Source of the DNA: Phoronis australis
Taxonomy: Eukaryota > Animalia > Phoronida
NCBI GenBank assembly: GCA_002633005.1
Contig: NMRA01000589.1
Location: 172,642 to 236,641 of the forward strand
Length of the DNA stretch: 64,000 nt
Direction of reading: 5' to 3'
In this document: positions 1 to 56,599 of the stretch, one piece after another
Numbering within the stretch: the first letter of the stretch is position 1
Layout of the letters: every line of letters starts with the position of its first letter
Program-made: the position numbers and the translations under genes
The notes under the pieces: generated by a model
Databases searched by the model: none
Told to the model about the DNA's origin: nothing
Seen by the model: only the letters and a program-made list of their open reading frames with translations

Positions 1-165
1 CATTGCTCCCTTTAGCGGCAATGTTTAAGTTAATGCCCATCCGCAGTATCTGCAATGTATGTGATGCACTTAGTGGGCGCCTTGCGTCTCCCTTGCGAGC
101 CAATTTTTCATGAAAGGCTAATGTTTTCCATTCATTTTCTATACAAAATTCGTGTATAATTTCAG

Positions 166-13239: not shown

Positions 13240-15419
13240 AGTTGTTGTACCGGTCCTGTGTACGCAGTGCAAGTGTCGTTATTTCAGTATAGCGTAGCAG
13301 GACTGCCGTACTATACGTGACAATTGGGTCATGACGCCGGCACTAAACTATGTGTTTACTATTCCGGCCTTTCGTATTTTTTCAATTGCATGGGTTTGGT
13401 CTGGCATGCACCAAGCTGGTAGTGAACACGTGTTGATATTTTTACCAATTTTTGTTAGCGTGGCAGTGCAAGTTAACGACTGACTAGAAATAAAAGAATG
13501 AGCGAGACGGAAACTAACCATATCCATCACAAACCTTCGCTACGCGGCAGTTACTATACACCATCCATCGAGTCCTTCTTCGATCTGAAATGTTTTGTAC
13601 CCTAAAATATTCTGTCCTTCGAACACATTGAAGGTTACCCATACGTCTGGTAAAATAAAAATTTGGAAATGTCGCATTTCAATTACCGGTATCATGTCCC
13701 GACCTCCCGGCGCACACCCACAACTTTTACACTCGAGGGGTCAGGTGATAGGCATGAACGGTTATGTAATTTATCAATTAAGAACTTCAGAGACATTTTG
13801 TGTGTGTGATATTCTAGTTGACCATCCATCGCCGTTATATCGAGATCTATTAATTACTCTTAGCTATTGCATAACAACACTGAGATTTACATTGTTAGTG
13901 GCTTACAGCACGTATTTTTCTATAGCTGCACCCAATACTATGTTGTAATTAAAGCGACAATAGACCGCGTCACGGTCGAAAAAAACTAAATTTTGGTTTA
14001 GAGCACTTATCGCTATAAAATTGCGGCAAGCCTCGGCTGGGCTCCTTACTTACATCTGGGAATCAGTTCCTAGCTTACATGAGAAGTGATTTTTGGTCCT
14101 GCAAAAGTCACAGTTTGTTATTCCTCGAGGCAATGCTCGGCGAATTAGATGACACGCCATGATAAGTAGAGCTGCCAGTTCCTTCCAAACTCGGAAATCA
14201 CACCTATTTTAACTAAAAACAGTTTGCGACCAATTTCATAACGGTCTAAACCACTTGTTGTGACAACCAGCTCTTCGTCAGCCATTCAAATAGGATTTGA
14301 AAATTAGCACGGAGTACTCAACACCACTTCCTCGGCAACCGCCTCAATCTTTCATTCCGGAACTATATTACGTCATCGGTTCCTTTGAAATCCTGTATTA
14401 CTTGGCGTGATCTGTGAGCTCTGCTAACTTTCAATCGAAGCAGTCTGCTCACCTCGTGTTTTTTTCTTCTGCACTGGCCCTTCGAGTTTATGTCTCCTTC
14501 ACGGATACATGTATAGCGTCGGTTGTTCAATAGCAAGTATAAATTTGTTAAGCACTAGGTCAAATTCGATTTCGCGGTTGTGAATTGTCACGTACACGCA
14601 ACCTATCCAAAAAGTTTGCTTTTGAACACAGTTTAACAACGTAACTATCTTAATATTTCACTTCGAGATGTTTACACTGCTCCCACCGACATTGTAGTTA
14701 GTAGATTTCGCAAAAATTCAATCACTTTTAACAAACACGTACATTTGCTTTTGCCGTGTAGGAAGTCATGTGTTCACCTACAACTGAAGCAATGAATATG
14801 AAATTGCTCGGATTTCAAAATTTTAAAATATTTTTATTGGCAAACAGAAAAGAAAACGTGTCAAATAGATTTACTAAATAAGTAAGCATTAAAATAATAA
14901 CATAATAATCGCTTTCCCCGGTTAAGTATGATACAAAAGTTCAAGGTTTTCATTATAACGGTTGTGTTCCAAAAATACCCTATATGTCAATAGAAGCCGA
15001 ATTGTTAACTGTATGTGTGAAATCCGATTGTGACTCAAGCATATGAAGAAATTCAACATAGCCATGCATTTTTGCCGTGCTAAATCTACCGTCAAAAAAC
15101 CGAGATGCCAAAAAATGGCCAAGAAGTGTGATTTTGACCATATTTTTATCTAAAAACACAAATTCAAGACTGCCCGGTGCAATAAAAGAGACTATCATCC
15201 AAATGTTCTTTCACCCTAAACTCTATAAATTCAAGTTAAATATGTCATTACTAATCACACTTTTGGCAAATTCCATTTGTCTGAAAGCTAAGTACCTGGA
15301 TTTGTGCCAAAAATTCAAGACTCAACAAGCATGTGCTCTCAAGTAGACAAGAGCACAGGCCAAATTTCTGGACACAGTTTACTAAAACAACTTCACGGAA
15401 CTACCGAAAACCATTTGTG

Positions 15420-15699: not shown

Positions 15700-16470
15700 A
15701 GAATTTCAAACTTCAAAAAAACTTTATAAAATCACCTTTTGAATATTTTTCGGAGAGACTCTTCCCCTGGAAAATTGGCAGTATACAAAGAAAATAAGAA
15801 ACAATTTCACATGTTATACAAAGAAAAAGAAAACGAGCTTCAAGCGAAGTTGCTGGAAAATATTCTGGATAGAAAAAATAATCCAAAGCAATTCTGGCCT
15901 CTGGTAAAATCAAATTTTAATAGTAGTCTGGAGGAAACTCCAGAACGGTGGTACATGTATTTTAATTTGTTGCTCAATGAACGGATAGAACCGAGCGACA
16001 CTGTCAAATGCGGTCGTAAGACAACAAGAAAATCATGACAATTACTGTGATGCTTGTGACGAAAATTTACCCAGTGATATGAACACTTGTTTCTCATGTG
16101 AGGAAATTGACTGCGCTATAATGGATCTAGCAAACGGCAAAGCAGCCGGCATTGACCACGTTGTATTTGAGATGTTGAAGAGTACGAGGGTAGCTATTGT
16201 TCCTGTATTGGAACTGCTTTTCAATGGAATTCTCGCTACAGGTCACTACACACAATAATTGTTCCTATGTTAAAACAGGGTGACACCGAAGATGAGAACA
16301 ATTATAGGGGTATCTCATTGTTGTCAGCAGTAGGAAAGCTATTCACCAAACTTTTGAACAACCGGCTTAGCACCTGGGCTGAGGCAAATGGCGAACTTCG
16401 TGAATCACAGGCGGGATTCCGCAAGGGCTACTGCACACAGGACCAAATGTTTACGCTCCAGGCCATGTTG
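15700..16470 (+). mobile_element. Degenerate non-LTR retrotransposon ORF2 (reverse transcriptase N-terminal part, CR1/L2-like)
   Basis: KAAGIDHV..EMLK, KQGD..DENNYRGISLLSAVGKLFTKLLNNRL, ESQAGFRKGY.TQDQ; stops and frameshifts present. Confidence 0.85.
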
Positions 16471-17009
16471 TTAGTATGTTTTGAACTGCACTCAGTGTTC
16501 ATTTATATGATTAGGTACGACGGTAAGCTATTTCACAGCACAAATGACGATGAGAAAAATTGAGTTTGCGCCCTTAGACAAAGTTAAATTTTGTTGATGG
16601 CCGCTGGTCTTAAGTTCAGCCTTGGCTTGCCGGCGAGGTCACGTGTAATGTCACTCATATATTTTATCATTAACCTTTATTAATTCACATCACAACATAG
16701 TATAGTTGAAAAACATCATGAAAGTGAATTTAAAATGTTTTTTTTTATTTTCAATTTCACCAAATCTTAAGGTCATCTGCAGTCGCTTGTGTCCCGCAAG
16801 CCTGTTCGTTCCACGTAAACCGTTGATCCGCATTTAGGTTTCCCAAGCTCTTCGAAAAACCATGTTGCAGCTTTCATTAGCGACGTGGGACTAAAATCAA
16901 ATAATGTACTTCTTGCTAAAATGGAGGACGATCGCAGTCTCCCGCGCCCTGGCATATCGCAACTTACCCATTGAGTGTCACACTTAAAGTAGTCACTTAT
17001 GAATTCATG

Positions 17010-23202: not shown

Positions 23203-26200
23203 CCGTGCACAGTAATGAAGCAGACACCAGATGCTCAGAGGGCAAAGAAAAACTTCACTTCAATTTAGATGAAGACAGATGTGCTCAGCTCAAGTCCATA
23301 GCGAAGGCACTAGGATGTCATGTCATCGACGTTTTCGTGGCGTTTGTCTACGCAATTCTCGTACGTTACGAAGGAGCCGAAAAGTCGTCTTCTGTCGAAG
23401 TTGGCTTTGCAACTCCAAATGAAGATCAAACCTCAGAGACCACTCTATTCCTCTCAGACGAATTCCTGCAATTCACGGACATTCAGTTACCTACTGACAC
23501 ACAAGGGGATGTTGCTAGCTTAATACAGTCATTCAAGACCAGCTTGGGAAAAGTAGTCAACGCTGTCTCACCATACAAGACATCTTTGCCTAACATTCTT
23601 ATTGGTTTTAACTTCCCACGGGAATTTGAGAAGCATGTGGCGCTAGACAGGTTTGCAGTGCGGCTACAAGCAAACAGGTTTAAGAACAAAGACACAAACC
23701 TTGATACGTACAGATGCACGCTTGTATACAGTGGTGAAGGCAAAAGTGCTGGCCTCCTGAAAATGTTCGAAGGGCACCTCCTTACGCTTGTTCAAGAGGT
23801 CATTGTATCACGAGAAGTCGGCAAACAAATGAATCTCTTTAGCTTACCAATGCTAACTCCAAGCGAAAAGAGTTTTCAGGATCATTACAATGACACCAAC
23901 AGAAAGTATTCTGAAGGCAAATTACTGATGCATGAACTATTTGAGAAGAAGGTGAAGATGTCCCAGGACGCAGTTGCTGTTAAATGTGAAAACGAAAGTC
24001 TTACATATGCAGAGCTTGATCAACTCTCAGATAGTCTAGCTGAACAGATATTGTCAACGGCAGGCGACAACTTGAGCAATCGCGTGGTTGGCATAAGCGT
24101 TGACGCCTCAGTCCAAATGGTTGTTGGTCTCTATGCCATAATGAAGGCAGGATTGGCTTACGTACCTTTAGACCCAAGCTACCCCGAGGATCGTCTGAGC
24201 TATATGATTGAAAACTCCGAAGCGTCATTGATTCTTGCAAAGACAGACATGACAGACAAACTTAAGAAGTTTTCAGCGAACGTCTTGTGTTTAGATGATA
24301 TGCTCAACCAAGTAGAATTTGACCCAAACCACAACGTCATCAAGAGAAATAAGAAGGTTGACGTCAGACCAGACGACTTAGCTTACATCATCTACACATC
24401 AGGGTCAACGGGAAAACCCAAAGGGGTAATGATAAGCCACAGAAATGCAGTCAATACAATTCTGGACATAAACGACAGATACAACATTACTGCCAAAGAT
24501 AAGTTACTCCTTGTTGCATCTTTAAGTTTCGACTTATCGGTATATGACATATTTGGTATTTTAGCAGCTGGTGGGACCCTAGTCATCCCTGTCCCAGAAA
24601 TTCGCGGTGTCCCGGATCCCGCCTGTTGGATAAAAACTATGAAGCAAGAGAGCGTCACGTTCTGGGACTCTGCTCCAGCAGTATTAAGCCTTCTGGTAGA
24701 GTATCTTCACTCAGAGGGGGACGTCTTACCTCAATCATTACGTCTTGTAATACTAAGTGGTGATCGCATACCCCTAATGCTGCCTTCTCACTTGCAAGAA
24801 ATGGTGCCAAACGTACAGGTTATGAGCCAGGGGGGAGCAACCGAAGGTTCTATTTGGTCAATTTACTACCCAGTCAAAACAGTTAACCCTGCTTGGACAA
24901 CCATACCCTACGGCATGCCATTGACAAATCAGAAGTATTATGTTTTAGATGAGTTCCTGAACCCTGCACCTACCTTAGTGACTGGCGAGCTTTACATCGG
25001 TGGTCTCGGAGTAGCAATGGGATACATGAATAACGAAAAAGTCACCAGCTACCGTTTCCTCCCTAGTCCATTTAAAGACGGCGGACGCATTTACAAAACG
25101 GGAGACTTAGGTCGATTTCACCCTGAGGGGTACATCGAGTTCTGTGGTCGCATTGACAACCAAGTAAAGATCCGAGGATTTAGAGTCGAGCTATCGGAAA
25201 TTGAATCCGCCTTGATTAACCAAGACGGTGTGGACGATGCCCTAGTCATGAAGGTTCAGGAAAAGCTTGTTGCTTACGTCATACACGACCAACATGCTAA
25301 ACTAAACGCGACAGACCTTCAAAAGCATATTAGCGAAACCCTGCCAACATACATGGTGCCAGCATACATAGTTATCATGGATTCATTTCCGGTTACCGTG
25401 AACGGTAAAGTTAACCGAAAAAAATTACCTCCCGCGGAATCAACGAGCCACAGAACCGAAGGCACAGGACCACCAGACGAGACTGCCCAATCATCAGAGC
25501 TAAAACTTTCAAACAACGAACAAGCCATCGCATCTGTTTGGTGCGAACTACTGAACACCGACATCCAGTCAATAAAACCAAGATCGTCCTTCTATGAAGT
25601 TGGTGGAGATTCCATATCCGCCATGACTATAGTGACGCAGTTGAAAAAGAAAGGCTTGAGCTTGACTGTCCAACAACTTCTAAGTCAACCAACTCTAGAA
25701 CAATTGGCATTAGTAGCCAAACCCATCAAGAAGCGAGTGGGAACAAAACAACACGAAAGAGAGGCGTCATCACCAAACGTGGAACTGACTCCAGCACAGG
25801 TTTGGTTCTTTGAGCAGGAGTTTGACAACATCAATTTCTGGAACCAGTCTTTTCTCATGATACCAAAAGTTAGATTGGAAAAAGAAAAATTGTCAAATGC
25901 TGTCCATGGTCTTGTCTCAAAACACGAAATGCTGAGGTGTAAATTCACCAAAGATCATCTTGGAAAATGGAAACAGACAATAGGAAATGAAGTTTCCTTT
26001 GTTTTTGAAAATGAAGATATATCAATAGACTTACTTAACACTAATATTGACAAGCTTAGACGGTCACTTGACATTTCCAAAGGTATCCTTATTGCAGTTG
26101 GGCTATTTGAAATCGATGGAGAACAGAAAATCTTTGTCACTGTTCACCATCTTGTAGTTGATTTGGTATCGTGGCGCATAATTCTAGAAGACATCGAGTT

Positions 26201-29200
26201 TCTTTACACAGACTCCGCAACACAAGACACGACACTTTCATTTCAGCGATGGTCTTCACATCTTCAACAAAAAGCCATAAACTGTCGTAATATTAATATG
26301 GATGACAAGTTTTGTCTATTGCACTGCGACTTCGACAGCGGTATTGTCCCACGAGCTAGTTCCAGAAGCGTTCTCTCAACTAAGCTACCTCATGACATCA
26401 CTGCCCAACTGACGACCACTGCGAACGATGCTTTCAGAACCACTACCGTCGACCTCCTCTTGACGACACTGATGCTGTCGTACAACCACTGTCTTGGAAA
26501 ATCGGCCCTCCACATTGACGTGGAAGCTCATGGGCGTGAACCCTTAGATGCAGACATAGACATATCTCGTACACTCGGCTGGTTCATGACAATGTTTCCT
26601 CTAAAGCTTGAAGTCACACGAGAGCAATCGACAGAGGCAACACTTGAAAGCACAATTAAACGTACAAAAGAAGCGATCAGAAAAATTCCGCACAAAGGAA
26701 TTACATTCTGGTTATTGAAATATTTGAAGTCGCTCGACAGCATCAGCTTTCCATCGTCAGACGTCTTGTTCAACTACTACGGGAGGTTTGACCAGATACA
26801 AACAAGAAGTGATTTCTGGGACATGGATCCGAGTTATAGCTCTGGCGAAGATGAATTTGATGAAAGCGAAAAGCTAACTCATAAGCTAGTTGTTGAATGT
26901 TACATAAAAGATGAGCTTCTTCATCTTAAAATGTTCTACAGTACCGACTTCCACAAACCTAACACCATTCAAATTTGGCTACAGAAATGGAAAGAGTCGT
27001 TGCTAAAGACTGCTCGACACTGCGCACAAAATGGAGTGCAAGGATACACCCCATCAGACTTCCCGCTTTTGAGCCTGTCACAGGGACACTTGGACTATCT
27101 CTTGGCTACAAGATTAGCGCAGCTTGATCTGAAAGCCGAGCAGATTTCGGATATGTATCCCTGTACACCAATGCAAGAAGGTTTCTTGTTCAGTCTGTTA
27201 CAAGATCCGTCATCATATCTCATTCAACGGTCTTGCACGGTGAACGGTGATCTCGATCAAAATCAGCTTCACCAGTGTGTGGCAAAGGTCATCCAGCGAC
27301 ATGATGCACTGAGGACAAGGTTTTTCGTCGATAGACTCAATGGGTGCATGCAAATTGTTCGAAAAACACATGACACAACCTGGGCAGTCGAAGATTTGTC
27401 AAATGTCACGGAGTCTCAGGCGGAGGAAAGAGAGCAGCAGTATTTGAGTCAGGATCGCAAAAGAGGATTCAGCATGTCTGAGTCAATGATTCGATTCTGT
27501 CTCTTTGTCCTGACAAAGAGTAAACATCGACTCATTATGACCGTGCACCACAGTTTGTTAGACGGTATGTCCTGTTCCATTTTGTTGCAAGAAGTTGTCC
27601 AAGCCTGCAACAATTCGGCTTTACCGGAAGCGCCAAAATACAGAGAGTTTGTCCAAGAGGTTATGGTCTCGAGGCAGAGTGCCTACACATCAGAGGGATT
27701 TTGGAAGGAAGAGATGCAGGACCTCCCTTTCCTTGGGAACCTTCGCATGCTGTCCCCAGTCACACCTCTTCGAGGTCACGAAGTAATCCTGGAATCATTT
27801 GACGTAGTTCCAAACTTTTCAGCATACACTGAACAACACGAGATATCGCCTGCTGCGATACTGTGTGCTGCATGGGCGTTCATCATCAATAAGTACTCTT
27901 GTGATCCAAATGACGTCATATTTGGGCTCATAGTGTCTGGGCGAAGTTCATCAAATATCGACCAAATTAATAAGATGGTTGGTCTAACTATTAACACTCT
28001 CCCGATGCGGGTTAAAATTCAAGATCACCACGTCACCGAATGGGTAAAGTATGTACAACGAAAAATTGCATCCATTACAGCTCAAGAAAAATCGTTCACG
28101 ACTGATATTCAAAAGTGGTGTGGTCTAAACCCAGACGATAAGTTATTCGAAACCGCTATTTCTTACCAAACGGCCCACACAGAAGTTGACCAGACTCCAC
28201 ACGGCATTAGTATAACTGATGTTTATGACCACGAATATACAGAATATCCCCTGACTTTAGACATTTTAAATACGGGTACGTCTTTTCAAGTGAAAGCGAT
28301 TTACGATACCAAAATTATTGACGTTCTAGCACTGAAACAGATGTTGATGCAGTGGAAACAAGTCATCGGTGCCATAGTTAAGTCCGGCAATAGCTATAAA
28401 GTGTGCGATCTAAATATGCTCTCTAACGAAGAAAACACGATCGTTCGAGAATTCAATACTCCAAATGAATTCGACATAACCTTTGGTCATGTGAAAGGTG
28501 TTCATCAGCTGTTTGAAGACAAGATGAAGTTTTTACCAGCCAGTCATAAAGCTATTGAATCAAGACTCGGTTCTCTGACTTATGAGGAAGTCAACAATGC
28601 CGCAAATTTCATTGCTTCTCAACTGCGTGTCCTTGGCGTCAAGCGGGAGAGCAAGGTCGGCTTACTGCTCGATCGCAGTGAATCCATGCCAGTGTGCATG
28701 CTTGCAGTCTGGAAAGCAGGAGGAGCATTTGTTGCGATTGAAGACTCGCTTCCCAGCGACAGAATCAACTTCATCCTTCAAGACAGTGGATGCACAGTTG
28801 TTGTTAATGCTGCGAACATCCCGTTAGACGACATAGCAGGACGTTTGGCGCAAATCACAGTGAGCAGAAGCGATATTTGCGACTACGCTAGCCGTCATAG
28901 GGAAAACTTAGCGAGCTTAAACGCATGGCAAGACCTTGCATATGTGAGCTACACGTCAGGATCCACTGGACGGCCTAATGGGGTTTTAATTGAACACGGC
29001 GGGATAATTAATCTTTTGCTGTGTAAGCCTGGAGGACTGTTTCAAGTCTCGCAAAAGTCACGAGTCATGCAATTCTTTTCCGCTAGTTCTGACAAGGCTG
29101 TAGGTGAAATATTTGGAACACTTTGCCATGGCGGATGTCTTGTTATCGCCGATGAAAATTTCGCAGAAAGTCTTAAGTCTGTTGACACAGCTACACTTAT

Positions 29201-32200
29201 GCCATCAGGATTTGGAATGCTGGACTTTAACGATTATCCCAATCTTGAACTGATCGTTTCAACCAGCGAACCTTGTACCCAAGTGATGGTTAATTCTTGG
29301 GGGCGAGACCGAATTGTGGAAAATGCTTATGGGACAGCTGAGTGTAGCATTTTTACCAATGTTGGCCGCCTTTTGCCGCACAAAAGAATAACCGTAGGAA
29401 AGCCTTTGCCAAACACAAAGAGTTACGTCCTTGATAAAAATCTGAGCTTATTACCAGTGAACGTAACAGGACATCTTTACATCGGGGGAGTTGCCGTTGC
29501 ACGAGGTTACCACAATAGACCAGATTTAACTGACAGTGCCTTCATTGAAAATCCTTTCGACAATGGATACTTCTATAAGACAGGCGATTTAGCTAGGTGG
29601 CTGGACACGGGAGAGATCGAAATAATTGGTCGTCAAGACAGCCAGGTACACTTACGAGGAAAAAGAATTGAGTTGATGGAAATAAGATCTGCACTCGAAC
29701 AACTCCCAGAGGTAAAACAAGCACACGTTGTATTGCAAGACAAGCAGTATATAATTGCTTACGTGGTAGCGTCAGCTGAATGCGACATCATTGATAGGCT
29801 CAAAAGGCAACTGCCTAGTTTCATGGTGCCAACATCAGTTATTTCCGTGGATTTTCTCCCGTTGACATCGGGAAATAAGATTGATGACGCTGCTCTTCCC
29901 AAGTTCACTCCCAAGCCATCTCATGATGACTCTCGAACGCCACTCAATGACTTGGAATTTCTGACTTTGAAAGCATACAAAGAAGTTATAGATCCCAACT
30001 TCACTATGGACGACGATTTCTTCAGTCTCGGCGGTCATTCACTTCTCGCGATAACATTGAAAACTGTTTTGGTTGAGAGTCTTGGATATGAGATTTCTAT
30101 GACGGACATCATGCGATACACAACACCTGCAGAACTTGCAGATCAACTGGGTAGAAGGATGTTAGCTCCACGGAAACTCCAAACATCTACCAGACTTATT
30201 CCAAAATCCTGTCCATCGGATGAAGCTGTTATTAAAGAACGAACTTCCTTTCATCAAGAACAAATGTGCTTGTTGTACGAAGTGATACAGGACAGCCCAG
30301 TGTACAACGTGTCGCTCATTTTGACTTTCCGTGGTCAGCTGAACGTTGAGTCTTTGAAACAGTCACTCATCGCGGTAACTCAAAACCATCACTCATTCAG
30401 AACAGCTTTTGAAATTGCAGAAGACAAATTCGTGCAAGTAGTGAGACCGGTGAACGAGACAGCATTTGACTTTGAATACCATGAAGGTGAGCACAGCGAA
30501 GCCGAAACGAGAGAGATCATCTACACAGAGGCATCCAAACCGTTTAACTTGTATAAGCTTCCACTAGCAAGATTCCGATTGGTGGAACTCAATGCACAAG
30601 AACACAGAATGCTACTCTTGATGCATCATGCAGTAACAGACGGTGCTTCACTGAAGATCATTGTGGATGAAATGTCCGAACGTTACCACTGTTTGTCAGA
30701 AAATCTTAATTATAACGTACCTCCCCAAACCCTGGAATATATTGACTACAGCATCTGGGAGAGAAGTGTCCTAGAGACCGAAACCTTTGAAGCTCAACTT
30801 TCTTTCTGGAAACGCCAGTTGGAATACGCTCCTTCGTTACTGGATTTACCGTTGGACAGACCCCGCCCAGCAGTTCCGTCATACGACGGTGCGTCGGTGT
30901 TCTTTTCTATTCCAGAAAGTGTGACAAACAANTGTTAGCTCCACGGAAACTCCAAACATCTACCAGACTAATTCCAAAATCCTGTCCATCGGATGAAGCT
31001 GTTATTAAAGAACGAACTTCTTTTCATCAAGAACAAATGTGCTTGTTATACGAAGTGATACAGGACAGCCCAGTGTACAACGTGTCGCTCATTTTGACTT
31101 TCCGTGGTCAGCTGAACGTTGAGTCTTTGAAACAATCACTCATCGCGGTAACTCAAAACCATCACTCATTCAGAACAGCTTTTGAAATTGCAGAAGACAA
31201 ATTCGTGCAAGTAGTGAGACCGGTGAACGAGACAGCATTTGACTTTGAATACCATGAAGGTGAGCACAGCGAAGCTGAAGCGAGAGAGATCATCTACACA
31301 GAGGCATCCAAACCGTTTAACTTGTATAAGCTTCCACTAGCAAGATTCCGATTGGTGGAACTCAATGCACAAGAACACAGAATGCTACTCTTGATGCATC
31401 ATGCAGTAACAGACGGTGCTTCACTGAAGATCATTGTGGATGAAATGTCCGAACGTTACCACTGTTTGTCAGAAAATCTTAATTATAACGTACCTCCCCA
31501 AACCCTGGAATATATTGACTACAGCATCTGGGAGAGAAGTGTCCTAGAGACCGAAACCTTTGAAGCTCAACTTTCTTTCTGGAAACGCCAGTTGGAATAC
31601 GCTCCTTCGTTACTGGATTTACCGTTGGACAGACCCCGCCCAGCAGTTCCGTCATACGACGGTGCGTCGGTGTTCTTTTCTATTCCAGAAAGTGTGACAA
31701 ACAAGCTGATGAGCTTGACATATAAGTTCGGGGGAACGATGTTTACAGCACTTCTTACGGTATATGCACTCTTGATACGCATATACTGCCAAGCAGACGA
31801 CATTGCACTGGGAGCGTTTGTTTCCGGAAGACACAACCAAGGTACAGAGAATATCGTGGGTTATTTTGTGAACACCCTCCCTCTTAGAGTTAAGTTTAAC
31901 AAGAAACAAACGTTCAACGATATGCTCATTATGATTAAAGACCTTATGCTGGATGTTCTAAACAACCAGGACGTGCCTTTTCAAAAAATCTTAGAAGCAC
32001 TCAGCATCCCACGTGACACAGCCTACCACCCAATCATTCAAGCCGCTACGATCTTGCAAGAAGGACTAGCAAGCAGACAAGTTAGTAAAGGGTTGAACTT
32101 AAACGTTGACAGTTTCGAACAGTTCACAGCAAAATTTGATTTAAACTTGGAGTATTTACGACATCCGAATGGCCAGATTTCAGGGCAATTTGTTTACAAT

Positions 32201-32547
32201 ACTGACGTCTTTAACAAGTCCACTATTGAGCGGATGACTGATCACCTACTCTATTTGTTCGATTTGGTTACAAGAGACTGTGACACTCCAATGAACCATC
32301 TGTGCATGCTACCTCCCAAAGATTTGGAGCGCATAATGTCTTTCAACACGACTGGAGACTGTACGGACGTTCGCATCCACCGACAGTTTGAAATGAGGGC
32401 AGACGAGTCGCCAGAGGAGATCGCGGTCGAAGAAAAAAGGCGCCATATAACTTATGGTGGACTGAACAAAGCCGCAAATGACTTAGCACGTCAGCTGCGA
32501 TCACTTGAAGTGACCTTTGATGTACCAGTGGCCTTGCTGGGAGAAAG
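23203..32547 (+). CDS. NRPS giant exon (partial C, A1, T1, E1, C2, A2, T2, C3, start of A3)
   Basis: ORFs 23166-30938 and 31037-32551 form one frame once the duplicate is removed; acceptor TTTTATTTTAG|23203, donor AG|GTAAGA at 32548 (phase 2). Confidence 0.9.
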
Positions 32548-35500
32548 GTAAGAAATCATTTATTTTGGTAAAATTTAACGTCCCAGTGACTTACAGGAGT
32601 TTTCCGCAGATAAGCCCACCCGATGAAACGCTCATGGGCGTTTATTTGGTGTTACAACTGGTATCAAGTGTCTAGATAGTGGGCCGTTTATTCGGAAGAT
32701 TTCCTCTTAAGAGCCCACAATGAGGTCTGGAGGTGCACATTAATCTTCTTGTCCCACTGGGCAGATATTGCAAAAATTCATGGGCTGTTACACAATTAAC
32801 GTTGTTAACCCGCATTCACAACAATCCTTTTAGGACTACCAATCCACCCAGAAAGGCTGTTTCACTTACAAAAAATACGTACAGCGCTTCCTTTCGTCAT
32901 TTGCGTAGCCGAAACTATGACTTTCCATTTACACGCCCCCTTTTCCGAATAAACGCCAGGGCGTTTATTTGGCGTTACTAAAACGCCTGAAATTTTTCAC
33001 TTTCCGAATACACCCCATGGCTTATCCCCGGAAATATCGGTATTATGGAAAATCTTGTTTTAACATTGGTAAAACATCACCACTCGGATGCTTGTGACAT
33101 GTGGCAAAACTCTTCGCTTTTTCATGTTTTAGGACGTCCTTGCCAAATGCCAACTCGAACTAATCACTATGGAAATATATACATCAGTTACCTACTTTTT
33201 GTTTTAGAAACCTTGAGCTCATCGCTGCTATCCTGGGTACATTAAAAGCAGACGGAGCCTTTGTTTGCATAGACGTATCCTTGCCCCAAAATCGCATCGA
33301 CTACATGCTCGAAGATTCGGAATGTCACGTTGTCGTAACCTCGCAACGCATCCTTAATTCCGGAATCCTAAAGCATTTTGGGGGACATGTCATATGCCTA
33401 GACATAGAGAAATGCACAACAAAATACCCTATTCGTCTCAGCTCTGATAAAGACAGAGAAGTGCAAGCCCAGAGCAAAGTGACGTCCAGTAATATGGCAT
33501 ACATAGTATACACATCGGGGACAACCGGGAAGCCGAAGGGTGTTATGGTAACACACAAAGGCGTAGAAAATCTTATCCCAAAAATGAACAAGGCGCTAGG
33601 TGTAAGGAAGGGAAGGAAAATAACACAGTTCTTCAACATAATGTTTGATGGCGCGTATCAAGAAATATTCATGGCGCTCTCCAGCGGAGCTACTCTTGTA
33701 CTTCGTGAGACGGACTACCGCAACACGTTGAAGTCGGTGGACTTTTCTATGATGACGCCAACTGTACTTGCATCTTTGGATCCAAGAGACTTCCCAAACC
33801 TAAAAACTGTGGCTGTTCTTGGCGAAATATTGCCCGAATCTGTGGTCGCGTGCTGGGAGGATCACGTAGACTTATTTAATGAATATGGCCCGTGCGAGGT
33901 GACAATCAACTGTACTATTGGTAAGGTGAATAACAGATCGCAAGTGACAGCTGGAAAGCCAATAGAAAATTGCACGACCTTTGTGCTTGGAGACGACATG
34001 AACCTGGTTCCAATTGGCGTGAAAGGAACAATTTTCATTAGCGGACTCGGTGTTGCAAGAGGATACCTCAACAGACCGGACTTGACCCTTCAGAAATTTG
34101 TAGATAATCCATTCGGTGAGGGTAAACTCTACAACTCCGGAGACGTTGGATGTTGGACCGACGACGGTGAACTCGTGGTCAATGGACGAAAAGACAGACA
34201 GGTAAAGTTCAAACGGTGATCATAAGATGGGCTGTAATTTTTTCACAATGATGTCTTGCTCGCAATCCGATCTTTCCCAAGAAGTTTCGAGATATTCATT
34301 GTCAGTTTGCCGTATGACTGTTGATAGGACAATAAACGGATAGGACGTGAATTTTAACGAGCTTTTATGATACTATGCAACAAATAAAACTGGTATGTTA
34401 CATAACTTACGTTCAATGTGTATAACTGAGACATAGCTTCAATACTACGACAAGAATTTGTCATGCTGCTTTGCATTCTTTATTATTCATTCCCGTGTCA
34501 ACTCAATCAAAAATTGATAAACCCATGGGTTTCAATGGTCGTTCTAGGTCAAATTGCGAGGATTTCGAGTAGAGCTCGGGGAAGTGGAACACGCGCTTGC
34601 TACGTTGGAGGGCATTGGGAACGCTGCTGTGTTGATGAAAAAGGACATTTTAGTAGGATATGTCACGCCCGATATCGGTAAGTGTGTCAATCCGTTTACT
34701 TAGACCGGTTTCCGGTATGAAATTGATCCTAACTTTACCTAGATGAAGATTGATTTCTGGGTTATGGAAAAGCTGGCAGTAAATTATTGTTTGCGAACGT
34801 GCTCGGCACATAACGTGACTGACACACTGTGACAATCCAAATTATCGAGTCTGATCCCAAGCAATAATGAACTGTGAGTTCTTCTACAACCCAGGAATTT
34901 TGTATCCGTCAGTGTCATAAACTAAAAGTTGTTTACGGAAGGCGAGTTAATAGCCGCTGTAAGAAGCCACTGCTAATGGTCACCTCGATGTCAACAAATT
35001 TTTAATTGAAACTAAATGAGCCTTATTTCGCTATCTGAGTAAAATCATTTTTGTTTTATATCTCGCTGAAGCTGCAGTGTGTCTACAATCTCTTCTCAAA
35101 ATCTTGTCTTCACAGGCACGACGAAAGCCCAAGAGCTTAAACAGAAACTCGAAGAAACTCTTCCGCGGTATATGATACCCACAGTGATCGTTCCTCTGGC
35201 AAAATTCCCAATGTCAACAGCCGAAAAGGTAAATTATCGCGCATTGCCCGAACCGAACTTAGTGCAACAGGAAACTGCCACAACAAAAGAAAAAATGCTC
35301 ATACAAATTTGGAGCGAAGTTCTTGGAATCAGCCCATCAAAGATCAAACCAACAGATTCCTTCTTTTATTTGGGTGGAGATTCAATTTCTGCCATGAAAG
35401 TTTTCACTTTGGCAAGAAAACAAGACTTACGATTCACAGTACAACAAATTTTCCAAACGCGGAATTTGTCTCAACTCGCAGCTGTAGCCAAATTTGAAAA

Positions 35501-38500
35501 GTCATCTATAGAGGCAGATCAAGTCGAGATTTCTGGACTCATACCTTTGACACCAATTCAAGAGTGGTTCATAGGCTTGGACATGATGAACCTCAACCAT
35601 TTCAACCAGTCTGCTCTCCTCAAGCCTCATAACATACTTGATGCTCAAGCACTTCAGAAAAGCATTGACAAACTTGTGTCGCATCATGACATGCTTAGAG
35701 TAAAGTTCCATTTCAGAGACGACGGTACAGTCACGCAAGAAATCAAATCTTCAAATGATTGCATAAAACCAAAACTATTACACAAAGCTGTATCGCAAGA
35801 CCAGGTGAATGACACACTGCACCAAATTCAATCATCTTTGAGCATAACAGATGGCCCTGTTGCAGCTTTCTGCCTGCTAGACGTGAAGAGTCAAGGGCAG
35901 TTGCTCTTCATAACTGTTCATCACGTCGCAATTGACTTGGTTTCATGGCAAATCCTTCTTGAAGACCTTGAGCTGTTGTACTTAGGCAAGAAGTTACAAC
36001 CTAAAACAACGTCGTTCAAAGCATGGTCAGAGGGTCTCTCGAATGAGTATCGTTTAACTATGTCAACAGATACTTGGCCCAAATGGCAGAATACAGCATC
36101 AAAAACTTTTGATCACTTCCTGTACGGGAACAAGATTAACGAGACTGGGGAAAACCGCACACTGAAACTGGAAAGTATTTCACTTCATGCTGAAACAACG
36201 GGCAAACTGCTTTCTCTTCAGGGAACCCAGGGGAGCGATTTAACTTCCGTTAACGACGTGTTATTGACTGCCTTAATTGTAGCATATCACAGATGTACTG
36301 CGATGACATCTCTTGCTGTAGAACAAGAATGGTTTGGAAGGGAACCTTGGAATGAGAAATATGATGTGTCCAGAACAGTAGGTTGGTTTACCGTCATGTA
36401 CCCTGTTACAATGACAATTGACAAAAATGGAGAATTGGAAGATCATCTTGAAAAGACAAAATCAATTCTGCGACGAGTTCCACAAGGCGGGCTTCCATTC
36501 GGTGTCAATAAATACCTGAATAAAGACGAAGACTACAGGTTCCACCAAAGTTGTGACGTTCTCTTCAACTACCACGGTAGTGCAACACAATTTTCCCAAG
36601 ACCTGACGCTTTGGGACGTATGCATGGATGGGGAATTCGTCTTCACAAACCGAGGCAAAGATGAGAAGTTATCCCATAGTCTTGTAATTGAGTGTTCCGT
36701 GCAAGACGAGTGTCTGAAGTCAATGTTCATTTATATGCACGATCAGAGAAGTCCGTTCATAAAAGAATTGGCTTCAACCTGGCTCGAAATCGTCAATTCC
36801 ATTATGTCAACTTGCAAAGTAATGCAGGTTGATAAAGGCATAGATCCATCCAATGATACCCTTCCTGCGCTTAATACAACTCAAATCCTAACAGACAACG
36901 ACACCGAAGCCATTTACGAATGTACCCCACTTCAAGAAGGTTTCATTCTTTCACTGCTTCAAGATAAATCTTCATATCTTGTCCAAATGGCAATGGATAT
37001 TGAAGGAAAGTTGGATGTACCACGGTTCATAGACGCTTGGAATGTAGTCATTCGCCGCCACCAGTCTCTAAGAACCTCGTTTGCAATCGAAACAAAGGAC
37101 CACATGTTGAGGCAAAACGTCAGAAGACAAGCAAACATTCAGTGGACAAAAGATCACTGGACGGATCCACTGCAGCAAGAGAACGAGTATGTGATCAAAG
37201 ACAGAAACGTAGGATTTGAAATGAAGGAGGTAATGATGCGCTTTGCGTTAATGAAACAACCTGATGACACATACAGGTTTATCTGGACGACCCATCACTC
37301 CCTGATTGATGGTTGGTCAACTCAGCTCGTGTTAAGAGAGGTTCTCTTAGCCTATCATCAACAGGAACTGCCTCCTCCACCACCTCCATTCCAAACTTTT
37401 GTCGAGTATTGTAAATCGCGAAATACTTCAGCCGCAAAGACTTTCTGGGGTGAATTCTTTGAAAACTTACATTCAAAGTTTTTAATTACCGGAAAGGAAA
37501 CCGTAAGACCCAAAGAAGTCTCATCGTCAAATGTGAAGAATTTCACCAAACAACTTGAAGTACGCACTGATAACCTCTGGCGTTTTGCACGTGAAAACAG
37601 TCTAACAATTTCCAGTGTCGTTTTTGGTGCATGGTCTATCGTGTTAGATAGATTTTGTAGCAATGGAGGGAACGATTGTGTGTTCGGCGTGGTACTGGCT
37701 TCCAGGAGTGCAGAAGTTGAAGGAATAGAAGACATGGTAGGTCTCTTGATTAACACATTGCCACTTCGAATCACATTTCCAACGAGTGCAGGTATTTCGA
37801 TGCTTGACTGGTTGCATTCAGTACAGTCCCGCCAAAGCAGTATAATGGAGTACGACTACTGCAACTTAGCAGATGTCGTACGATGGAGTGGCCTACCAAG
37901 AAACCAGAATATCATGGATTCTTTGGTAATTTTTGAAAATTATCCTCCGATGCACGACGTGGAAAACGGCGAAATAGCGCTCACTAATCTCCAAGCATAC
38001 GAGAAAGTACAGTTTCCCATAACAATAGAGGTTGCCGCGGACTCCGACTATGTTAGTGTCACGTGCATGCATGATACCAGCCGGATAAGCGATGATCTAG
38101 CTAGCGAGATGCTAGATTACATGAACAGTGCAATCAAGGAGCTGCTCAACTATGACACAGAGAAACCGATAGTTGAAATGGACATCGTCAAGGCGAGACC
38201 TGGGAGAGATGCCAAAGGAGTACGTTTGGACATGTGGAACGGGGTGGGATCCACAAGCCAACTTAAATGTTATATCAGGGATCAAAAGGGACGCATGACG
38301 CCACCAGGTATTGCCGGAAAACTAGAGTTCAGCACTAGTAATGGCGAGGCATGTCAAACGAACGTTGTGGCTCTGCTACATAACAACGGCGATATAAGCG
38401 TTTTATGCAAGAAAGGCAATTACGAACTTGAGGGTGCAGTTAAGTATGTTACGTTTGAAACTGAAGAGGGCGCGATAGCACTTACTCAGAAACCAGTTTC

Positions 38501-41500
38501 TTTTGAGGTTTTGAAAGAATTTCAAAAAAAGCACCTCAAGTGTATTCCAGTTCACAGCATTGAGTTTGTTCACGAAGAACTCATCAATCTCGTAACAGAT
38601 GAGGTAACGATCGATCAAGTGAGCACAATACAGGAAACACAGAGAGAAAGATTCGTTGACGAGTTCCAGATGACTTATTCCCAGAAACTGCTAAGAGATA
38701 TTTGGAGCCAACTTTTAGAAGTACCGCGGGATGACATCAAACTTGACCACTCGTTCTTTGACTTAGGTGGGACATCTATAAAGGCAATTAGCATGACTTC
38801 TTTGGCAGAAAAGAAAGGGCTGCATTTGAATTTAAATGACATCTTGGAGTATCAAACTCTCAGAGGCATTTCAGCTGCTGCTAAGACACAGACAGGTGAG
38901 TTTTTCAAGCAAAATATTTCGTGTTTTCGAACAAAATTTAAAATTAGTATGTCTTTTAATAAGTATGCTAAAGAAAACTAACATTTCAGGTATTTTACAG
39001 GCATAAGTTTTTCATAATTGTTAGAATTTATTCAGGAATAACAAACCATTTTTTCTGCAAGAAATTAAACGGCCAACATAATGTGCCAGAGCCTTGGTAG
39101 GCGAAACAGTTGGCCAACTCTGAGAGTAATTACAGTTTCGTTACTCTCAGGCCATCGTAGTTCGTGTCCACCAGAAACTTTATCAGAAGCATTTCAACCG
39201 ATTCTTGGAAGTTTTAGGTAGCTACTTCAGGTTCCTAAATCTCTACAGTCATTTATACCAAACCAATTAAAACAAATGAACGTGAGAGGGGACTGTCCAC
39301 GAAATGCAGGCGCTAGTAACAGACTTCGGGGTTATATGTGTTTGAATTCCACGAGGACCAGGCAAGTCTGGTAGCAGAAAATTAATGGAAATGTACACTG
39401 CACGCTCTTAAAAACCATTTAGAAAATTCTACATTTTCTACACTATTTCGTTGAACTGATATCTTCCGCCAAAAGTATTGCAAAGGCATAATTATTTAAT
39501 TTTGGTCCTTCAGTTTATCTGTCTTTTTAGAATTTCCAGCTTCGGTGATATCAAAACTTGACATTTCGTGATGAGGTCATTGCTTACAAAGTCGCTTGTT
39601 TCCTTGTTTTTAAAGTGACATGCTTGCTTCGCGTGGCACAAGTATGACCGACTGAAGTATTTTTACTTATTAACAAATTTTAACTTCTTACAGACAATGC
39701 AAACGACATTCTGGTGCGTCTGAATGAAGGAGAGAAGGACCGTATACCAATCGTTTGCGTCCACGCAAGCGATGGTGGCACGTCATCCTACGCGTACCTA
39801 GCAGGTAAATATTTCGCGTGTCCATTGTTGTTATTACATGTACTGCACGTGCAGTGCAGGTGACTGCGTACGAGTCCTCTAACTACAGTAGTAACCAAAC
39901 TGAATTGGAAAAAATACTGTTTGCCATCATGACGGCTACTTACCATCAAAAATGATTACTTACCACCAAGGCGGCAAACTTCTAATTACAGAATGGCTTA
40001 TAAGCCACCATATTAACTTTCCTGTTAACTGCTCTCCATTCTCGGTCACAAATGAGAGAAAATTTTTCTAACGACGAATTTGACTTCGGCCCAGCCATCA
40101 TGACGGGGAATCCCGGGTCATTTTTTCTGAAACACTTCTGGCTCGCGCTGTGCATAGATCTCTTCGTCGGAGGTATAAGCGCAAGAGGATTAAAGAAACT
40201 TTATCGGCATTATTACAGGGAAACTCATTTTGGGAATTGTTGTTCGGTGGGATAAACTTCTTAATTTTATTACTTTTGACCAGCTTCCCGTCCAGTAACG
40301 CTAGGACGTTGCTAAAAACCGACTTCGCGAGATTACGTGACATGATATTGTCGTGTATTGAGAACATGTGACTTTGGCTTGATTTTAGCTAGGTCCCAGC
40401 GTTACTGAACGCACGCCAGAACTATCGAAGAACATCTATCGTCTTTTTGTGATTTTATTACAAATTGCCAATTTTCGACATTTCCTGCCAGGAATTCGCC
40501 GAAACCAAGGCATGTACGCTTAACAACTCTGATATTTATCGAGGGGCCTTAGCTCTGTTAGCAGACCATAGAACTGTGATGGGGGGGTTGTATGCAGGTT
40601 TGATTGATCGCCGAGAGTGATCTCACAAAATTATTTTTCTCGCCAATAATGTCCCTTCATACCGCCAACCAGACCTTGCTTCACTCAAAGCGAAAAAACG
40701 AACGAATACGCGAATACTACTACATGTATGGAACGGCCGGCCACAAATTCGTGAAACTGTGAAAAACGGAACACAGCGAATGATATGCACCACCCAACCA
40801 GTAAATAAAACAAGCCCTCGGTGAGGGTTTGCAGAAAACGACGTTTTTACAGAACCTGAGCTTATACCAGGTTCGCTAGTAGGCTCACAGCTGTTGTTTA
40901 TGCAAAAATGAGCTGAACTCCACCAGCCTGTATACATAGGTGTTGGTTCATTCTACATATAGTAACAGAAAAGCAGGCGGCAAATCTCATACTTTAGTAG
41001 CAAAATAAGAGCGAAATCACGAGAAGCTGAGTTCATAACCAACGCATTCAAAGCCCTTAGAAAGGATACACAGAAGGTTGTTGGATGTTTTATGTTAGCT
41101 AGACCGCCATCCGACGGTAATACTCGGAACTAGAGAAAATATTAGATAAACACTATGTCGAGCAGCTACAGAACGGAACACGTTTCACGCACTTTCCACC
41201 AGAAAAAAGGCACACGCAGTTCTGTTGTACAAAAGATTTGAAATTATCCATTGGTCATGAAAGAGCATTCAACCAAACACTCGCCTATACTCTTGAGGAA
41301 ACTTAATGACGTACTATCACGTGTTCATTTTGCAGGCAACTTAAACCGACATCCATTATACGCATTCCGCTTAAAAGAGGATACACCATTCGAGTCGATT
41401 GAACAACTTTCTGCTTTGTACGTGGAAAGAATGGTCTCACTCGACTTCTTCGCCAACGTGCAACCATACTTACTGGTGGGGTATTCAACAGGAGGCGCAG

Positions 41501-41976
41501 TGGCGTTCGAGATGGCGCTTCAGCTTGAGCTAAAGCAATACCCACCCGCCAGACTGGTTCTGCTCGACGGCACACCAGAGTTTATGCGGAGAACTTATCA
41601 CGGCATCAGTAGTAAAAGCGAAGACGAAATTGTCGATGTAAAGAATTTCTTGACAAAAACGTGGGACGAGAAAGGACTGGACAAATCTGACCTTCAGAGA
41701 GCGTTGACCAACTTCAACAACACCGTCTCTCAGTACGCTAGCTACTCGCCGACTGAATTGTACCACGGCAGCACCGTTCTTGTTCAGCCAGCTAGCAATG
41801 AAAATAATGAGTTGTTGATGGCGGCTATCTCGCAGATGCCAAGTGAAGATTATGGGCTACAGGCGCTGTGTACCCAACCTGTGAAGATCGTAGTGGTGGA
41901 GGGAGATCACTACAGCATGATGCGAGATGCAGACGGAGTGATATCTCATACAGTTGTGGAAGGACTATCTCAGTAG
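23203..41976 (+). CDS. Spliced multimodular nonribosomal peptide synthetase, ~4,740 aa: C(partial)-A1-T1-E1-C2-A2-T2-C3-A3-T3-E2-C4-A(vestigial)-T4-TE
   Basis: Three YTSG(S/T)TG.P.GV adenylation motifs; four carrier serines (GGDSI, GGHSL, GGDSI, GGTSI); C-domain HHSLLDG, HHAVTDG, HHSLIDG; two E domains (HH...DLVSW, EAHGRE/EWFGRE, RT.GWF, FNY.G); TE with GYSTGG, LLDG, GDHY. Exons 23203-32547 (less the 773-bp duplicate), 33208-34201, 34548-34677, 35116-38895, 39694-39804, 41336-41976 join in frame. True start codon not resolved. Confidence 0.95.
30160..31704 (+). repeat. 772-bp direct duplication around a single N (30932); probable unmerged haplotype overlap
   Basis: 30160-30931 matches 30933-31704 apart from six substitutions that I could find. 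Confidence 0.9.
33208..34201 (+). CDS. NRPS exon (A3 core)
   Basis: Acceptor TTTTGTTTTAG; restores ER|NLELIAAILGTLKADGAFVCID; donor CAG|GTAAAG (phase 0). Confidence 0.92.
34548..34677 (+). CDS. NRPS exon (A3 motif A8 region)
   Basis: VKLRGFRVELGEVEHAL...LVGYVTPDI; TAG acceptor, GTAAGT donor (phase 1). Not shown in this frame by the ORF track. Confidence 0.92.
35116..38895 (+). CDS. NRPS exon (end of A3, T3, E2, C4, vestigial A, T4)
   Basis: Acceptor TCTTCACAG, donor GTGAGT (phase 1/1); within ORF 35079-38981. Confidence 0.92.
39694..39804 (+). CDS. NRPS exon (thioesterase N-terminus)
   Basis: DNANDILVRLNEGEKDRIPIVCVHASDGGTSSYAYLA; TTCTTACAG acceptor, GTAAAT donor (phase 1/1). Confidence 0.9.
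41336..41976 (+). CDS. NRPS last exon (thioesterase catalytic core)
   Basis: TTTTGCAG acceptor; PYLLVGYSTGGAVAFEMA, LVLLDG, EGDHYSMM; stop TAG at 41974-41976. Confidence 0.92.
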
Positions 41977-43537: not shown

Positions 43538-44767
43538 CTGAAATCAAAGAAACACAAGATTGTAATGTGTGACTTCATATTTACAAGCTGGTGCCAACGA
43601 AGGAAATGGTACATGAAACTAGAGGTGCATAAGTCTTCCCCTTCTGACAAAAACCAACTTTTATCGAGCCCATGTCTATAATCTGACGGTTATATAGTCC
43701 AAAGTTTCCACAGTCTGAAGGTTCGTCACTCAAACAACAAAACGCATGTCCCCTGTAGTCTGGAGAGCCCCACTATTACACAATCCCTTCCCAATTAGTC
43801 CACAAAACTAATGTCAAACCCGACCCACCTAATTTTAATCATTTTGGGGGACCCAAAATGATCTGAACAGTGGTCTTAGATCATACATTGCAGAAAAGAG
43901 GGACAAAATCGTCATCTTGTTGCAAACCTCGCAGACTATCCTGCACCAGTTCGAAGTTTCACAAATCTGAGCTGAAATCCTGCTGTATCAGGTTAGCATC
44001 ATGACGTCAAGGAAGTAGAACAAAAATCCAACTCACTTCTCATCTTCCAAAATGATTATTGATTAATTAGTTCAGATATAAGTGAACAGTATGTCGTTAA
44101 TAACCAGGTAATGGGAATATCGATATTTTTCTTTATCGTCCCAAAAATGCTAGGCCAAGTCGAAATTGAAAATTTCAAAAATGAATTAAATCAAATTAGC
44201 GGTGGTCATTAATTTCCCCCTTCATGCAATAATGATGTTAGAGGTAACTTGAAAAGCCTAAATTCTTGTGTTAAAAACAAAGGGTGCTATCTCAAAAGGG
44301 GAGAGCGGCATGGAGCTTCATGAGTTTAATATTTCACGTAATTGAAAGCGTAAAATTACGATGACTTCAATTTGTGTGTTACGTCAGGCAAAGTTGAGGC
44401 CACGGTGGACAAAAGACCGCGTAAAGCTGTAACGAAACCACAAAGCAAAGAGTTTCAAGTTCTTTATCGGAGATAAAGGTAGGCACTTTCCCTGTCTTTA
44501 AATATTATTTTGAAACATTCCGGTGTAACTTTACATGCTTTCTAAATAACACTGCCACTGCCTAAAATAAGTGTGATTTTAGAAAACGTTGCAAATATCT
44601 AACTGAATAGGATACGAAAACTGAAAATTGTTTCCAAAAATAAACAGCTTAAAAGTTTTGCCCTTTTGTATTCGGAACAACAACTCGTACCCGTTGTCTT
44701 AAATATTTAATGTATTTCCAGGCATCTACAGTTCACACCTGTATTGACAATAGAAATCGACGATATA

Positions 44768-45160
44768 ATGAATACGCGTATTCTTCTCGTCTGTATCTTG
44801 GGAGGAAGTTTTCTGGTGGCCGAAGCGCGCCCGTTGATGCCACGAGATACATCTCGTAAACCATCAGATGCATCCCAGCCTTCCAAACCTACTAAGAAAG
44901 TAGACGAAGGTACATGTAGACAACCTAAAGCGCAATTGTGATAATCACAATTTAATGAAACGAAAGATTCTTATTTAATCCAAGATTTTTCACTGAATAC
45001 TTCACAGTGTAAAGTCATTCGAGATCCCCGTCGATGAATTATTTAACTGTTTCTTCTGTCTTTTTCAGTCATAATTTCCTTCGTTCTGTTTGCTGCAATT
45101 AGCGGTTCAGTGACATGCTTTGCTTGGATCATAAGCGACTTGTTCCTACCCCAATGGTAG
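44768..45160 (+). CDS. 77-aa protein with signal peptide and C-terminal hydrophobic helix (exons 44768-44909, 45069-45160)
   Basis: MNTRILLVCILGGSFLVAEA|RPLMPRDTSRKPSDASQPSKPTKKVDE + VIISFVLFAAISGSVTCFAWIISDLFLPQW*; phase-1 GT-AG intron; upstream acceptor at 44721 and a donor-like site at ~44479. Confidence 0.6.
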
Positions 45161-56395: not shown

Positions 56396-56599
56396 NATTA
56401 ACCAGAAATTACATAAAGGTTGTAAAACCCCTTACCATATTTGGCGATAGCTCGGATTCATACCCGAGTCCTATGAGAGAGAGAGCCAGTTTGATAGATA
56501 TTCTTGAAGATATTCTACTGGTTTGCTCAGAAATCCCTGAAACATGTCGTTTAACGAGATAATGGATGCAAGTAAAGACGAGCAGTCACCAGTACGTTT

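Follow-up and report, generated by a model that had tools for sequence, protein, structure and literature searches.

A likely animal non-ribosomal peptide synthetase gene of Phoronis australis with two epimerisation domains and a fatty acid synthase-like thioesterase

D-residues in peptides of frogs, cone snails and spiders arise through post-translational isomerases. In marine invertebrates, peptides with D-residues are usually ascribed to microbes. Animal pathways based on a non-ribosomal peptide synthetase (NRPS) that have been characterised are described as few (PMC11869996). In a survey of 1,059 animal genomes, 199 NRPS clusters were accepted, and ACV synthetases with an epimerisation (E) domain are shown for animals (PMC10531068). 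Among fungi, Basidiobolus makes D/L cyclic pentapeptides (PMC10964425), and the link of its synthetase ORX93211.1 to a product is presented as an unconfirmed hypothesis (PMC7466969). Here we describe an NRPS gene in a 64,000-nucleotide stretch of Phoronis australis DNA (contig NMRA01000589.1, positions 172,642 to 236,641, forward strand; hereafter the window). An earlier note on this DNA had predicted an assembly line with a D-L-D tripeptide core and had implied that non-ribosomal D-residues would be new for animals. That novelty falls away, as ACV synthetases (PMC10531068) and the D-Asn of nemamide (PMC8363725) are already published. Our analysis suggests, with somewhat more for it than against it, that the gene encodes a four-module NRPS in which modules 1 and 3 are each followed by an E domain. 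This line would build a D-L-D core and pass it, by way of a fourth module that lacks an adenylation (A) domain, to a thioesterase (TE) resembling that of fatty acid synthase (FAS), which would release a short linear peptide.

The NRPS is one spliced gene on the plus strand (23203..41976), its introns placed from the sequence. Four long open frames are joined through five GT-AG introns (660, 346, 438, 798 and 1531 nt) into a single open frame of 4,741 amino acids (aa) with no internal stop. The coding exons lie at 23203-32547 (minus a 773-nt artefact), 33208-34201, 34548-34677, 35116-38895, 39694-39804 and 41336-41976. Writing C for condensation and T for carrier domains, the order is C*-A1-T1-E1-C2-A2-T2-C3-A3-T3-E3-C4-(A remnant)-T4-TE. 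C* is a degenerate C-terminal half of a C domain (23205..23879; Pfam Condensation E 0.014 over profile positions 226-271; 22-23% identity to two NRPSs). The NRPS domains match solved NRPS domains in the PDB with E-values of 1e-47 to 1e-63 each, beyond chance, and this is a real and probably functional NRPS. All the motifs cited by the earlier note were found in frame where it had placed them. The span it gave, 25510..38150, has to be extended at its end, as the line runs past 38150 into the A remnant, T4 and TE and takes in two more exons.

The first coding exon holds a repeat, in which 772 nt at 30160-30931 recur at 30933-31704 around a single N at 30932, with six sites differing between the copies. 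Owing to this 773-nt repeat the motif LDLPLDRPRP is present twice (30840 and 31613). A second real C domain was considered here and ruled out: a DNA contig of run X1 omits exactly 773 nt at the break, and depth there drops to 14-18 compared with 37. The break is an allelic-overlap assembly artefact, and 30932..31704 consists of one N and a second allelic copy of 30160-30931.

The stereochemical prediction depends on the two E domains. E1 (25776..27104) carries HHLVVD (26145), EAHGRE (26523), RTLGWF and FNYYG, and E3 (35541..36881) carries HHVAID (35919), an atypical EWFGRE (36327), RTVGWF and FNYHG. Against the PDB, E1 scored 155-202 bits to solved E domains and at most 36 bits to C domains or other chains; for E3 the values were 134-171 bits and at most 28. 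Both lie inside the E clade of a 137-row tree with support of 1.0. We also compared 388 NRPSs whose domains were labelled by context, a test that is not fully independent as boundaries were set with the window's own domains, and E1 or E3 was the best-scoring reference for 562 of the 563 E domains defined by context. E1 reaches 110.1 bits with TIGR01720 (cut-off 74.2) and keeps the catalytic His (HHxxxD) and Glu (ExxGRE), TxGWF and FNY. In TycA, loss of either catalytic residue cuts the product by at least 99% (PMC8905534). The PDB scores, tree and TIGR01720 result thus confirm E1 as an E domain with its catalytic His and Glu motif. For E3 the proposed class holds, and the catalytic His and Glu are retained together with both Asp, Arg, TxGWF and FNY; its Glu motif is not the normal one and its TIGR01720 score is below the cut-off.

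The C domains alternate in class. C2 (27141..28439; HHSLLDG, divergent) and C4 (36897..38216; HHSLIDG) find their best PDB matches in McyB, TycB, BacC, PvdL and SrfAC. For C2 the scores were 165.5 bits to McyB, 129.7 to TycB and 114 to SrfAC, against 77.9 to the LCL domain of TycC; for C4 they were 202.6 to McyB and 146.1 to SrfAC, against 63.2. C3 (30237..32347; HHAVTDG, LDLPLDRPRP) matches Txo2, 5u89, Txo1 and TycC best, with 216.5 bits to Txo2 and 213.3 to 5u89 against at most 45 to solved single E domains. We take the solved chains matched by C2 and C4 to be DCL and those matched by C3 to be LCL, and the context labelling of the 388 NRPSs served as a second basis. We found that 560 of 564 C domains that follow an E domain score best to C2 or C4, and that 237 of 393 other C domains score best to C3. 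In the 137-row tree C2 and C4 group with the post-E domains and C3 with LCL. Thus PDB scores, context scoring and tree all return the series that had been predicted, E, DCL, LCL, E, DCL.

The carrier domains, assigned by motif and gene model, are T1 (25518..25754; GGDSI at 25602), T2 (29937..30179; GGHSL at 30030) and T3 (35283..35516; GGDSI at 35373). T2 is followed by an LCL domain, as claimed, with PDB scores and tree in agreement. The rule behind that claim, that GGDS marks carriers serving E domains and GGHS those serving C domains, stands in one half: GGHS precedes an E domain in 1 of 563 cases. GGDS precedes 558 of the 563 E domains and also 169 of 393 non-E C domains, which rules it out as a sufficient marker of E. 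Since GGDS is not specific, only the GGHS of T2 is informative. Exceptions to the rule are noted in PMC10212144.

Three A domains precede these carriers. A1 (23886..25439; code DLYDISQIWK) belongs to the cysteine clade, with BmdB as its best single-domain PDB match (411.7 bits). Its code agrees at 7 of 10 positions with DLYN[LM]SLIWK, which we take to be a cysteine code. A2 (28446..29909; code DKGTVTAIFK) is divergent. A3 (32360..35261; code DGQMALEINK) is spread over four exons and has nearly intact core motifs, missing 1 of 48 conserved columns.

The line ends in an unusual fourth module. C4 is followed by a remnant of a fourth A domain of about 150 aa (38217..38666) that cannot adenylate. 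Within it, 28 residues align with positions 322-349 of an A-domain hidden Markov model of 504 positions at 8.0 bits, a score reached by none of 300 shuffles (best 1.8); Pfam gave no A match for the remnant and an Atlas look-up no usable match. T4 (38673..38895; Pfam PP-binding) has an intact Ser within an unusual GGTSI (38766), GGTS being present in none of 1,299 T domains compared. The His motif of C4, the Ser of T4 and the TE triad are all intact. The TE (39694..41976; Pfam Thioesterase E 3e-17) occupies two exons of its own behind a phase-1 intron, with its Ser in GYSTGG (41479), Asp in LLDG and His in GDH (41902). Single-sequence folds gave a predicted local distance difference test (pLDDT) score of 32 for the A remnant-T4 and 36 for the TE.

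The TE resembles that of FAS. Its best PDB matches are all FAS (58.1 bits), the match spanning two stretches, and microbial TEs in the PDB score at most 31.6 bits. The tail motif DYxLxxxC...V...EGDH is common to the TE and FAS, and none of 39 microbial TE-bearing proteins has this tail. Against this stands the best microbial TE in our stored set, at 48.2 bits, which leaves FAS a margin of only 10 bits. The first TE exon alone had no PDB match, and a protein search with the TE among proteins of 372-2,000 aa, a range that excludes full-length FAS, returned five weak matches. A host derivation of the TE is likely and rests on one comparison.

From the observed domain order, classes, catalytic residues and open frame we infer the following chemistry. 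A1 would load a cysteine-like small residue on T1, where E1 would invert it. C2 would join this residue to the one on T2, which has no E domain and would stay as loaded. C3 would then couple the dipeptide to residue 3, E3 would invert residue 3 on the tripeptidyl-T3, and C4 would transfer the chain to T4. Lacking an A domain of its own, T4 would probably be charged by another adenylating domain, giving a D-L-D-X tetrapeptide; we prefer this by a narrow margin to direct transfer of the tripeptide to T4, which is speculation. Loading of an A-less module by the A domain of another module is described for capreomycin (PMC12400406). Finally the TE would hydrolyse the chain, likely giving a short linear peptide. 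Of the D-L-D tripeptide first proposed, D-configuration at residues 1 and 3 is most likely, with the classes as predicted and both catalytic residues in E1 and E3. The word tripeptide does not carry over: C4, T4 and the TE come after E3, and therefore the product may be a tetrapeptide, three residues being the core and not necessarily the product.

Substitutions in E3 and A2 could break the D-L-D logic, and these and several further observations weigh against it. E3 does not have the canonical EGHGRE. Its EWFGRE has Phe at the second position past the Glu, where 359 of 362 E domains have His and 0 have Phe, and the usual Gly beside the catalytic Glu is replaced as well. E3 scores 51.4 bits with TIGR01720 and has a terminal branch of 1.24, compared with 0.94 for E1. 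Nor does the class of C2 and C4 prove selectivity for a D donor. The DCL class carries little weight in this lineage, since 15 of 16 fungal C domains that no E domain precedes share the clade, and fungal DCL-clade C domains frequently come after L modules. C2 misses 9 of 37 conserved columns. It could be that E1 works and E3 is dead or a weak spacer, so that the core is D-L-L and C4 takes an L donor. We consider this unlikely, as E3 retains the full set of residues given above and misses 3 of 40 conserved columns, the same number as E1 and one matched by 61 of the 362 E rows. A second departure from the D-L-D logic concerns A2. It deviates at 6 of 48 conserved columns, one of them that of the P-loop Lys (Lys to Asn in 0 of 213 rows), and three further core residues are absent. 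This is not a canonical colinear NRPS with an intact A domain in every elongation module, as module 4 has only a remnant and A2 lacks the P-loop Lys. The codes of A2 and A3 have no neighbour above 6 of 10 positions, their substrates cannot be called, and an achiral residue at either would void the 'L' or the 'D'. If A2 is impaired, T2 might, like T4, depend for loading on A1, on A3 or on a host ligase outside the line, or module 2 might be skipped, and the product could not be read from module order. The fourth A domain has already decayed, and an animal line with in-trans loading is on record in nemamide (PMC8363725). However, A2 is full length, with TGD and the A10 Lys retained, and its number of misses is matched by 14 of 213 A rows; we judge such a non-linear line a little less probable still than an inactive E3.

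Other observations bear on whether the gene is in use at all. Its start codon and 5' exon were not located, and an upstream scan for ATG-donor exons gave 10 candidates, none of them supported. We sampled 18-19% of each of three RNA runs (X5, X6 and X7) and averaged depth over 25 non-repeat NRPS bins. The four CT..AC joints of a minus-strand neighbour, each with 6-26 reads per run, identify first-mate-plus reads as minus-strand RNA. After this calibration, mean antisense depth over the NRPS was 1.07 in X5, 1.12 in X6 and 0 in X7, and mean sense depth was 0.24 (10 bins), 0.10 (7 bins) and 0. RNA depth was rejected as a measure of NRPS expression as it is mostly antisense, and no NRPS splice joint was found among the RNA joints listed for the sampled reads. 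Together with the decay of A4 and C*, these findings would suit a transferred gene that is now a relic, silent or decaying, and yields no product. That reading appears improbable to us. The 14.2 kb of coding sequence has no stop and all five introns are intact. Of 29 allelic differences considered in coding exons, 17 are synonymous, compared with 22-28% expected (pN/pS, the ratio of nonsynonymous to synonymous polymorphism, 0.20-0.27; p <=5e-4); the 29 comprise 23 among 40 differences listed of 203 and six between the duplicated copies. None of the 12 indels listed falls in a coding exon. This suggests purifying selection on the NRPS. Low expression also has a parallel in rotifers, whose NRPS genes are reported as barely expressed until challenge (PMC11258130). 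That the nearest relatives of the domains are fungal would fit a misjoin of contaminating fungal or protist DNA into the scaffold, but we regard contamination as very improbable. DNA depth on the NRPS exons (35-41) is similar to that of the flank, the NRPS introns carry repeats (depth 1,700-10,000) that are also present in host RNA runs, and reads from RNA runs under the same species label match NRPS exons. The neighbours are CUB-like, THAP-like and transposon sequences, and the TE is FAS-like. By the criteria for an NRPS in an animal genome, we found five GT-AG introns and a spliced neighbour; the CUB-like matches are weak (E 0.0016-0.0035). Taken together, the CUB-like exons, THAP remnant, reverse transcriptase and IS1595-like pieces, long introns, high-copy repeats and FAS-like TE point to what is likely an animal gene, and we retain the four-module line with a D-L-D core as our preferred reading.

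The body of the synthetase is related to eukaryotic, mostly fungal, NRPSs. ORX93211.1 of Basidiobolus meristosporus (6,237 aa; P0243 in our set) is the best or second-best match among the 388 NRPSs for all three A domains and all five C and E domains. The NRPS model is colinear with it over 4,156 columns at 33% identity, with single domains at 33-47% (A1 47%, A3 41%, E1 37%, C3 33%). In trees of the 22 best-scoring rows, A1 is sister to Basidiobolus A1 (support 98/96) and C3 is sister to the Basidiobolus LCL domain (100/99), the latter pair also being the two longest branches. Of 29 named eukaryote proteins, ORX93211.1 alone has a high-scoring LCL domain of bacterial type. A tree of 362 E domains placed E1 and E3 in a 23-tip clade of early-diverging fungi and one oomycete (0.953), nested in a 53-tip clade (0.973) in which the tips that could be named, only some of the total, are all fungal. 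A quick mixture-model tree of 48 chosen rows put E1, E3 and 23 eukaryote E domains on one side of a branch with a Shimodaira-Hasegawa-like approximate likelihood ratio test value (SH-aLRT) of 95 and an unresolved base, and a placement of E1 and E3 outside the eukaryote E domains was not rejected by the approximately unbiased test (p-AU 0.357). Kinship with a eukaryotic, mostly fungal, NRPS lineage is thus supported; the donor and the direction of transfer are not. Three protein searches gave relatives of the E/C region at 32% identity or less among the top 150 matches listed, places taken up by scores summed over several domains so that shorter fragments could be missed, and metagenome scans with A1-T1-E1 and with the TE gave no match. 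The body may have come from the lineage of ORX93211.1, shortened by one A-T-E-C unit, and a host TE was probably gained. The entire scenario, in which an animal took up a Basidiobolus-type cyclopeptide synthetase, lost one module, let the last A domain decay, added its own FAS TE and makes a D-L-D(-X) peptide with two working epimerases, is doubtful as a whole and is offered as a tentative account.

An NRPS of the oomycete Aphanomyces stellatus (P0326) has an E domain nested in chytrid E domains with a support of 99. This placement suggests that the synthetase lineage moved between eukaryotic kingdoms earlier.

Several other features lie in the window. On the minus strand, an expressed five-exon gene at about 6008-13300 has four RNA-supported introns and encodes about 329 aa. 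It had no Pfam or Atlas match; its C-terminal part presumably resembles the C-terminal extension of some alpha-amylases. Low-level minus-strand RNA, present in X5 and X6 and not in X7, extends over 13740-42200 and so across both exons and introns of the NRPS and the 9 kb upstream of it. It may be one long primary transcript, antisense to the NRPS, that continues into the minus-strand gene at 13300. On the plus strand, 114-4326 holds CUB-like exons and, after them, an exon encoding a hydrophobic stretch and an acidic tail; the last exon has sense reads. A short plus-strand frame at 44711-44941, 2.7 kb downstream of the NRPS, has a signal-peptide-like start and no Pfam match. Fragments of a non-LTR (long terminal repeat) reverse transcriptase (15730-16563), an IS1595-like transposase (56871-57511) and a THAP domain (59363-59623) were also identified. 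At 54695-56400 there are about 45 near-identical copies of a 39-nt unit that end at an N (56396) and have duplicated flanks, likely a satellite or an assembly effect.

How does the locus compare with described systems? It shares with ORX93211.1 the order A(Cys clade)-T-E-C ... A-T-C(LCL)-A-T-E-C and an HHxxxDLVSW E motif. ORX93211.1 differs in having five A and three E domains (predicted D-D-L-D-L). The window NRPS is shorter by one A-T-E-C unit, its last A domain has decayed and its TE is FAS-like. This parse conflicts with PMC7466969, where the gene model equated with ORX93211.1 is given as tetra-modular with N-methyltransferases. The ACV synthetase of springtails and Plectus (LLD-ACV) is likewise an animal-encoded three-A NRPS with E and TE, but its layout is A-T-C-A-T-C-A-T-E-TE with a single E directly before the TE, giving L-L-D (PMC10531068). 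The window NRPS departs from this layout: both of its E domains are internal, a DCL-type C domain comes directly behind each, and it has an extra C-T unit. PKS-1/NRPS-1 of C. elegans makes nemamide, an animal non-ribosomal product with D-residues and in-trans enzymes, whose D-Asn may arise by D-loading or through an unidentified epimerase (PMC8363725); in contrast, the window NRPS has canonical E domains and no polyketide synthase part. Bacterial T-E-C(DCL) modules (TycA/TycB, GrsA, PvdL, BacC) share the catalytic His and Glu and the T-E-C order. Their identity is 32-35% at best, and the window gene differs in its spliceosomal introns and in E domains that group with eukaryotic ones. The TE has its best match and its tail motif in common with animal FAS, whereas it follows a peptidyl carrier here, and its margin over the best microbial TE is the 10 bits given above.

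In open-licence literature, covered largely as titles and abstracts, neither two internal E domains nor Basidiobolus-like kinship nor a FAS-like TE was found described for an animal NRPS. The table in PMC10531068 gives coordinates without architectures, and this locus may be among its entries. The stereochemical inference is routine, and D-residue chemistry by animal NRPSs has precedent; the less ordinary part is the origin, a fungal-type body with a FAS-like TE. An intact animal gene with two E domains makes a host-made D-peptide a testable prediction. With its fungal-type body, its FAS-like release domain and a last module lacking an A domain, the NRPS would illustrate the remodelling of an acquired assembly line in an animal. 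If so, the line would be a chimera across kingdoms, unlike the animal NRPSs described in the literature compared here, and would give an invertebrate a direct route to a D-peptide of a kind otherwise credited to symbionts.

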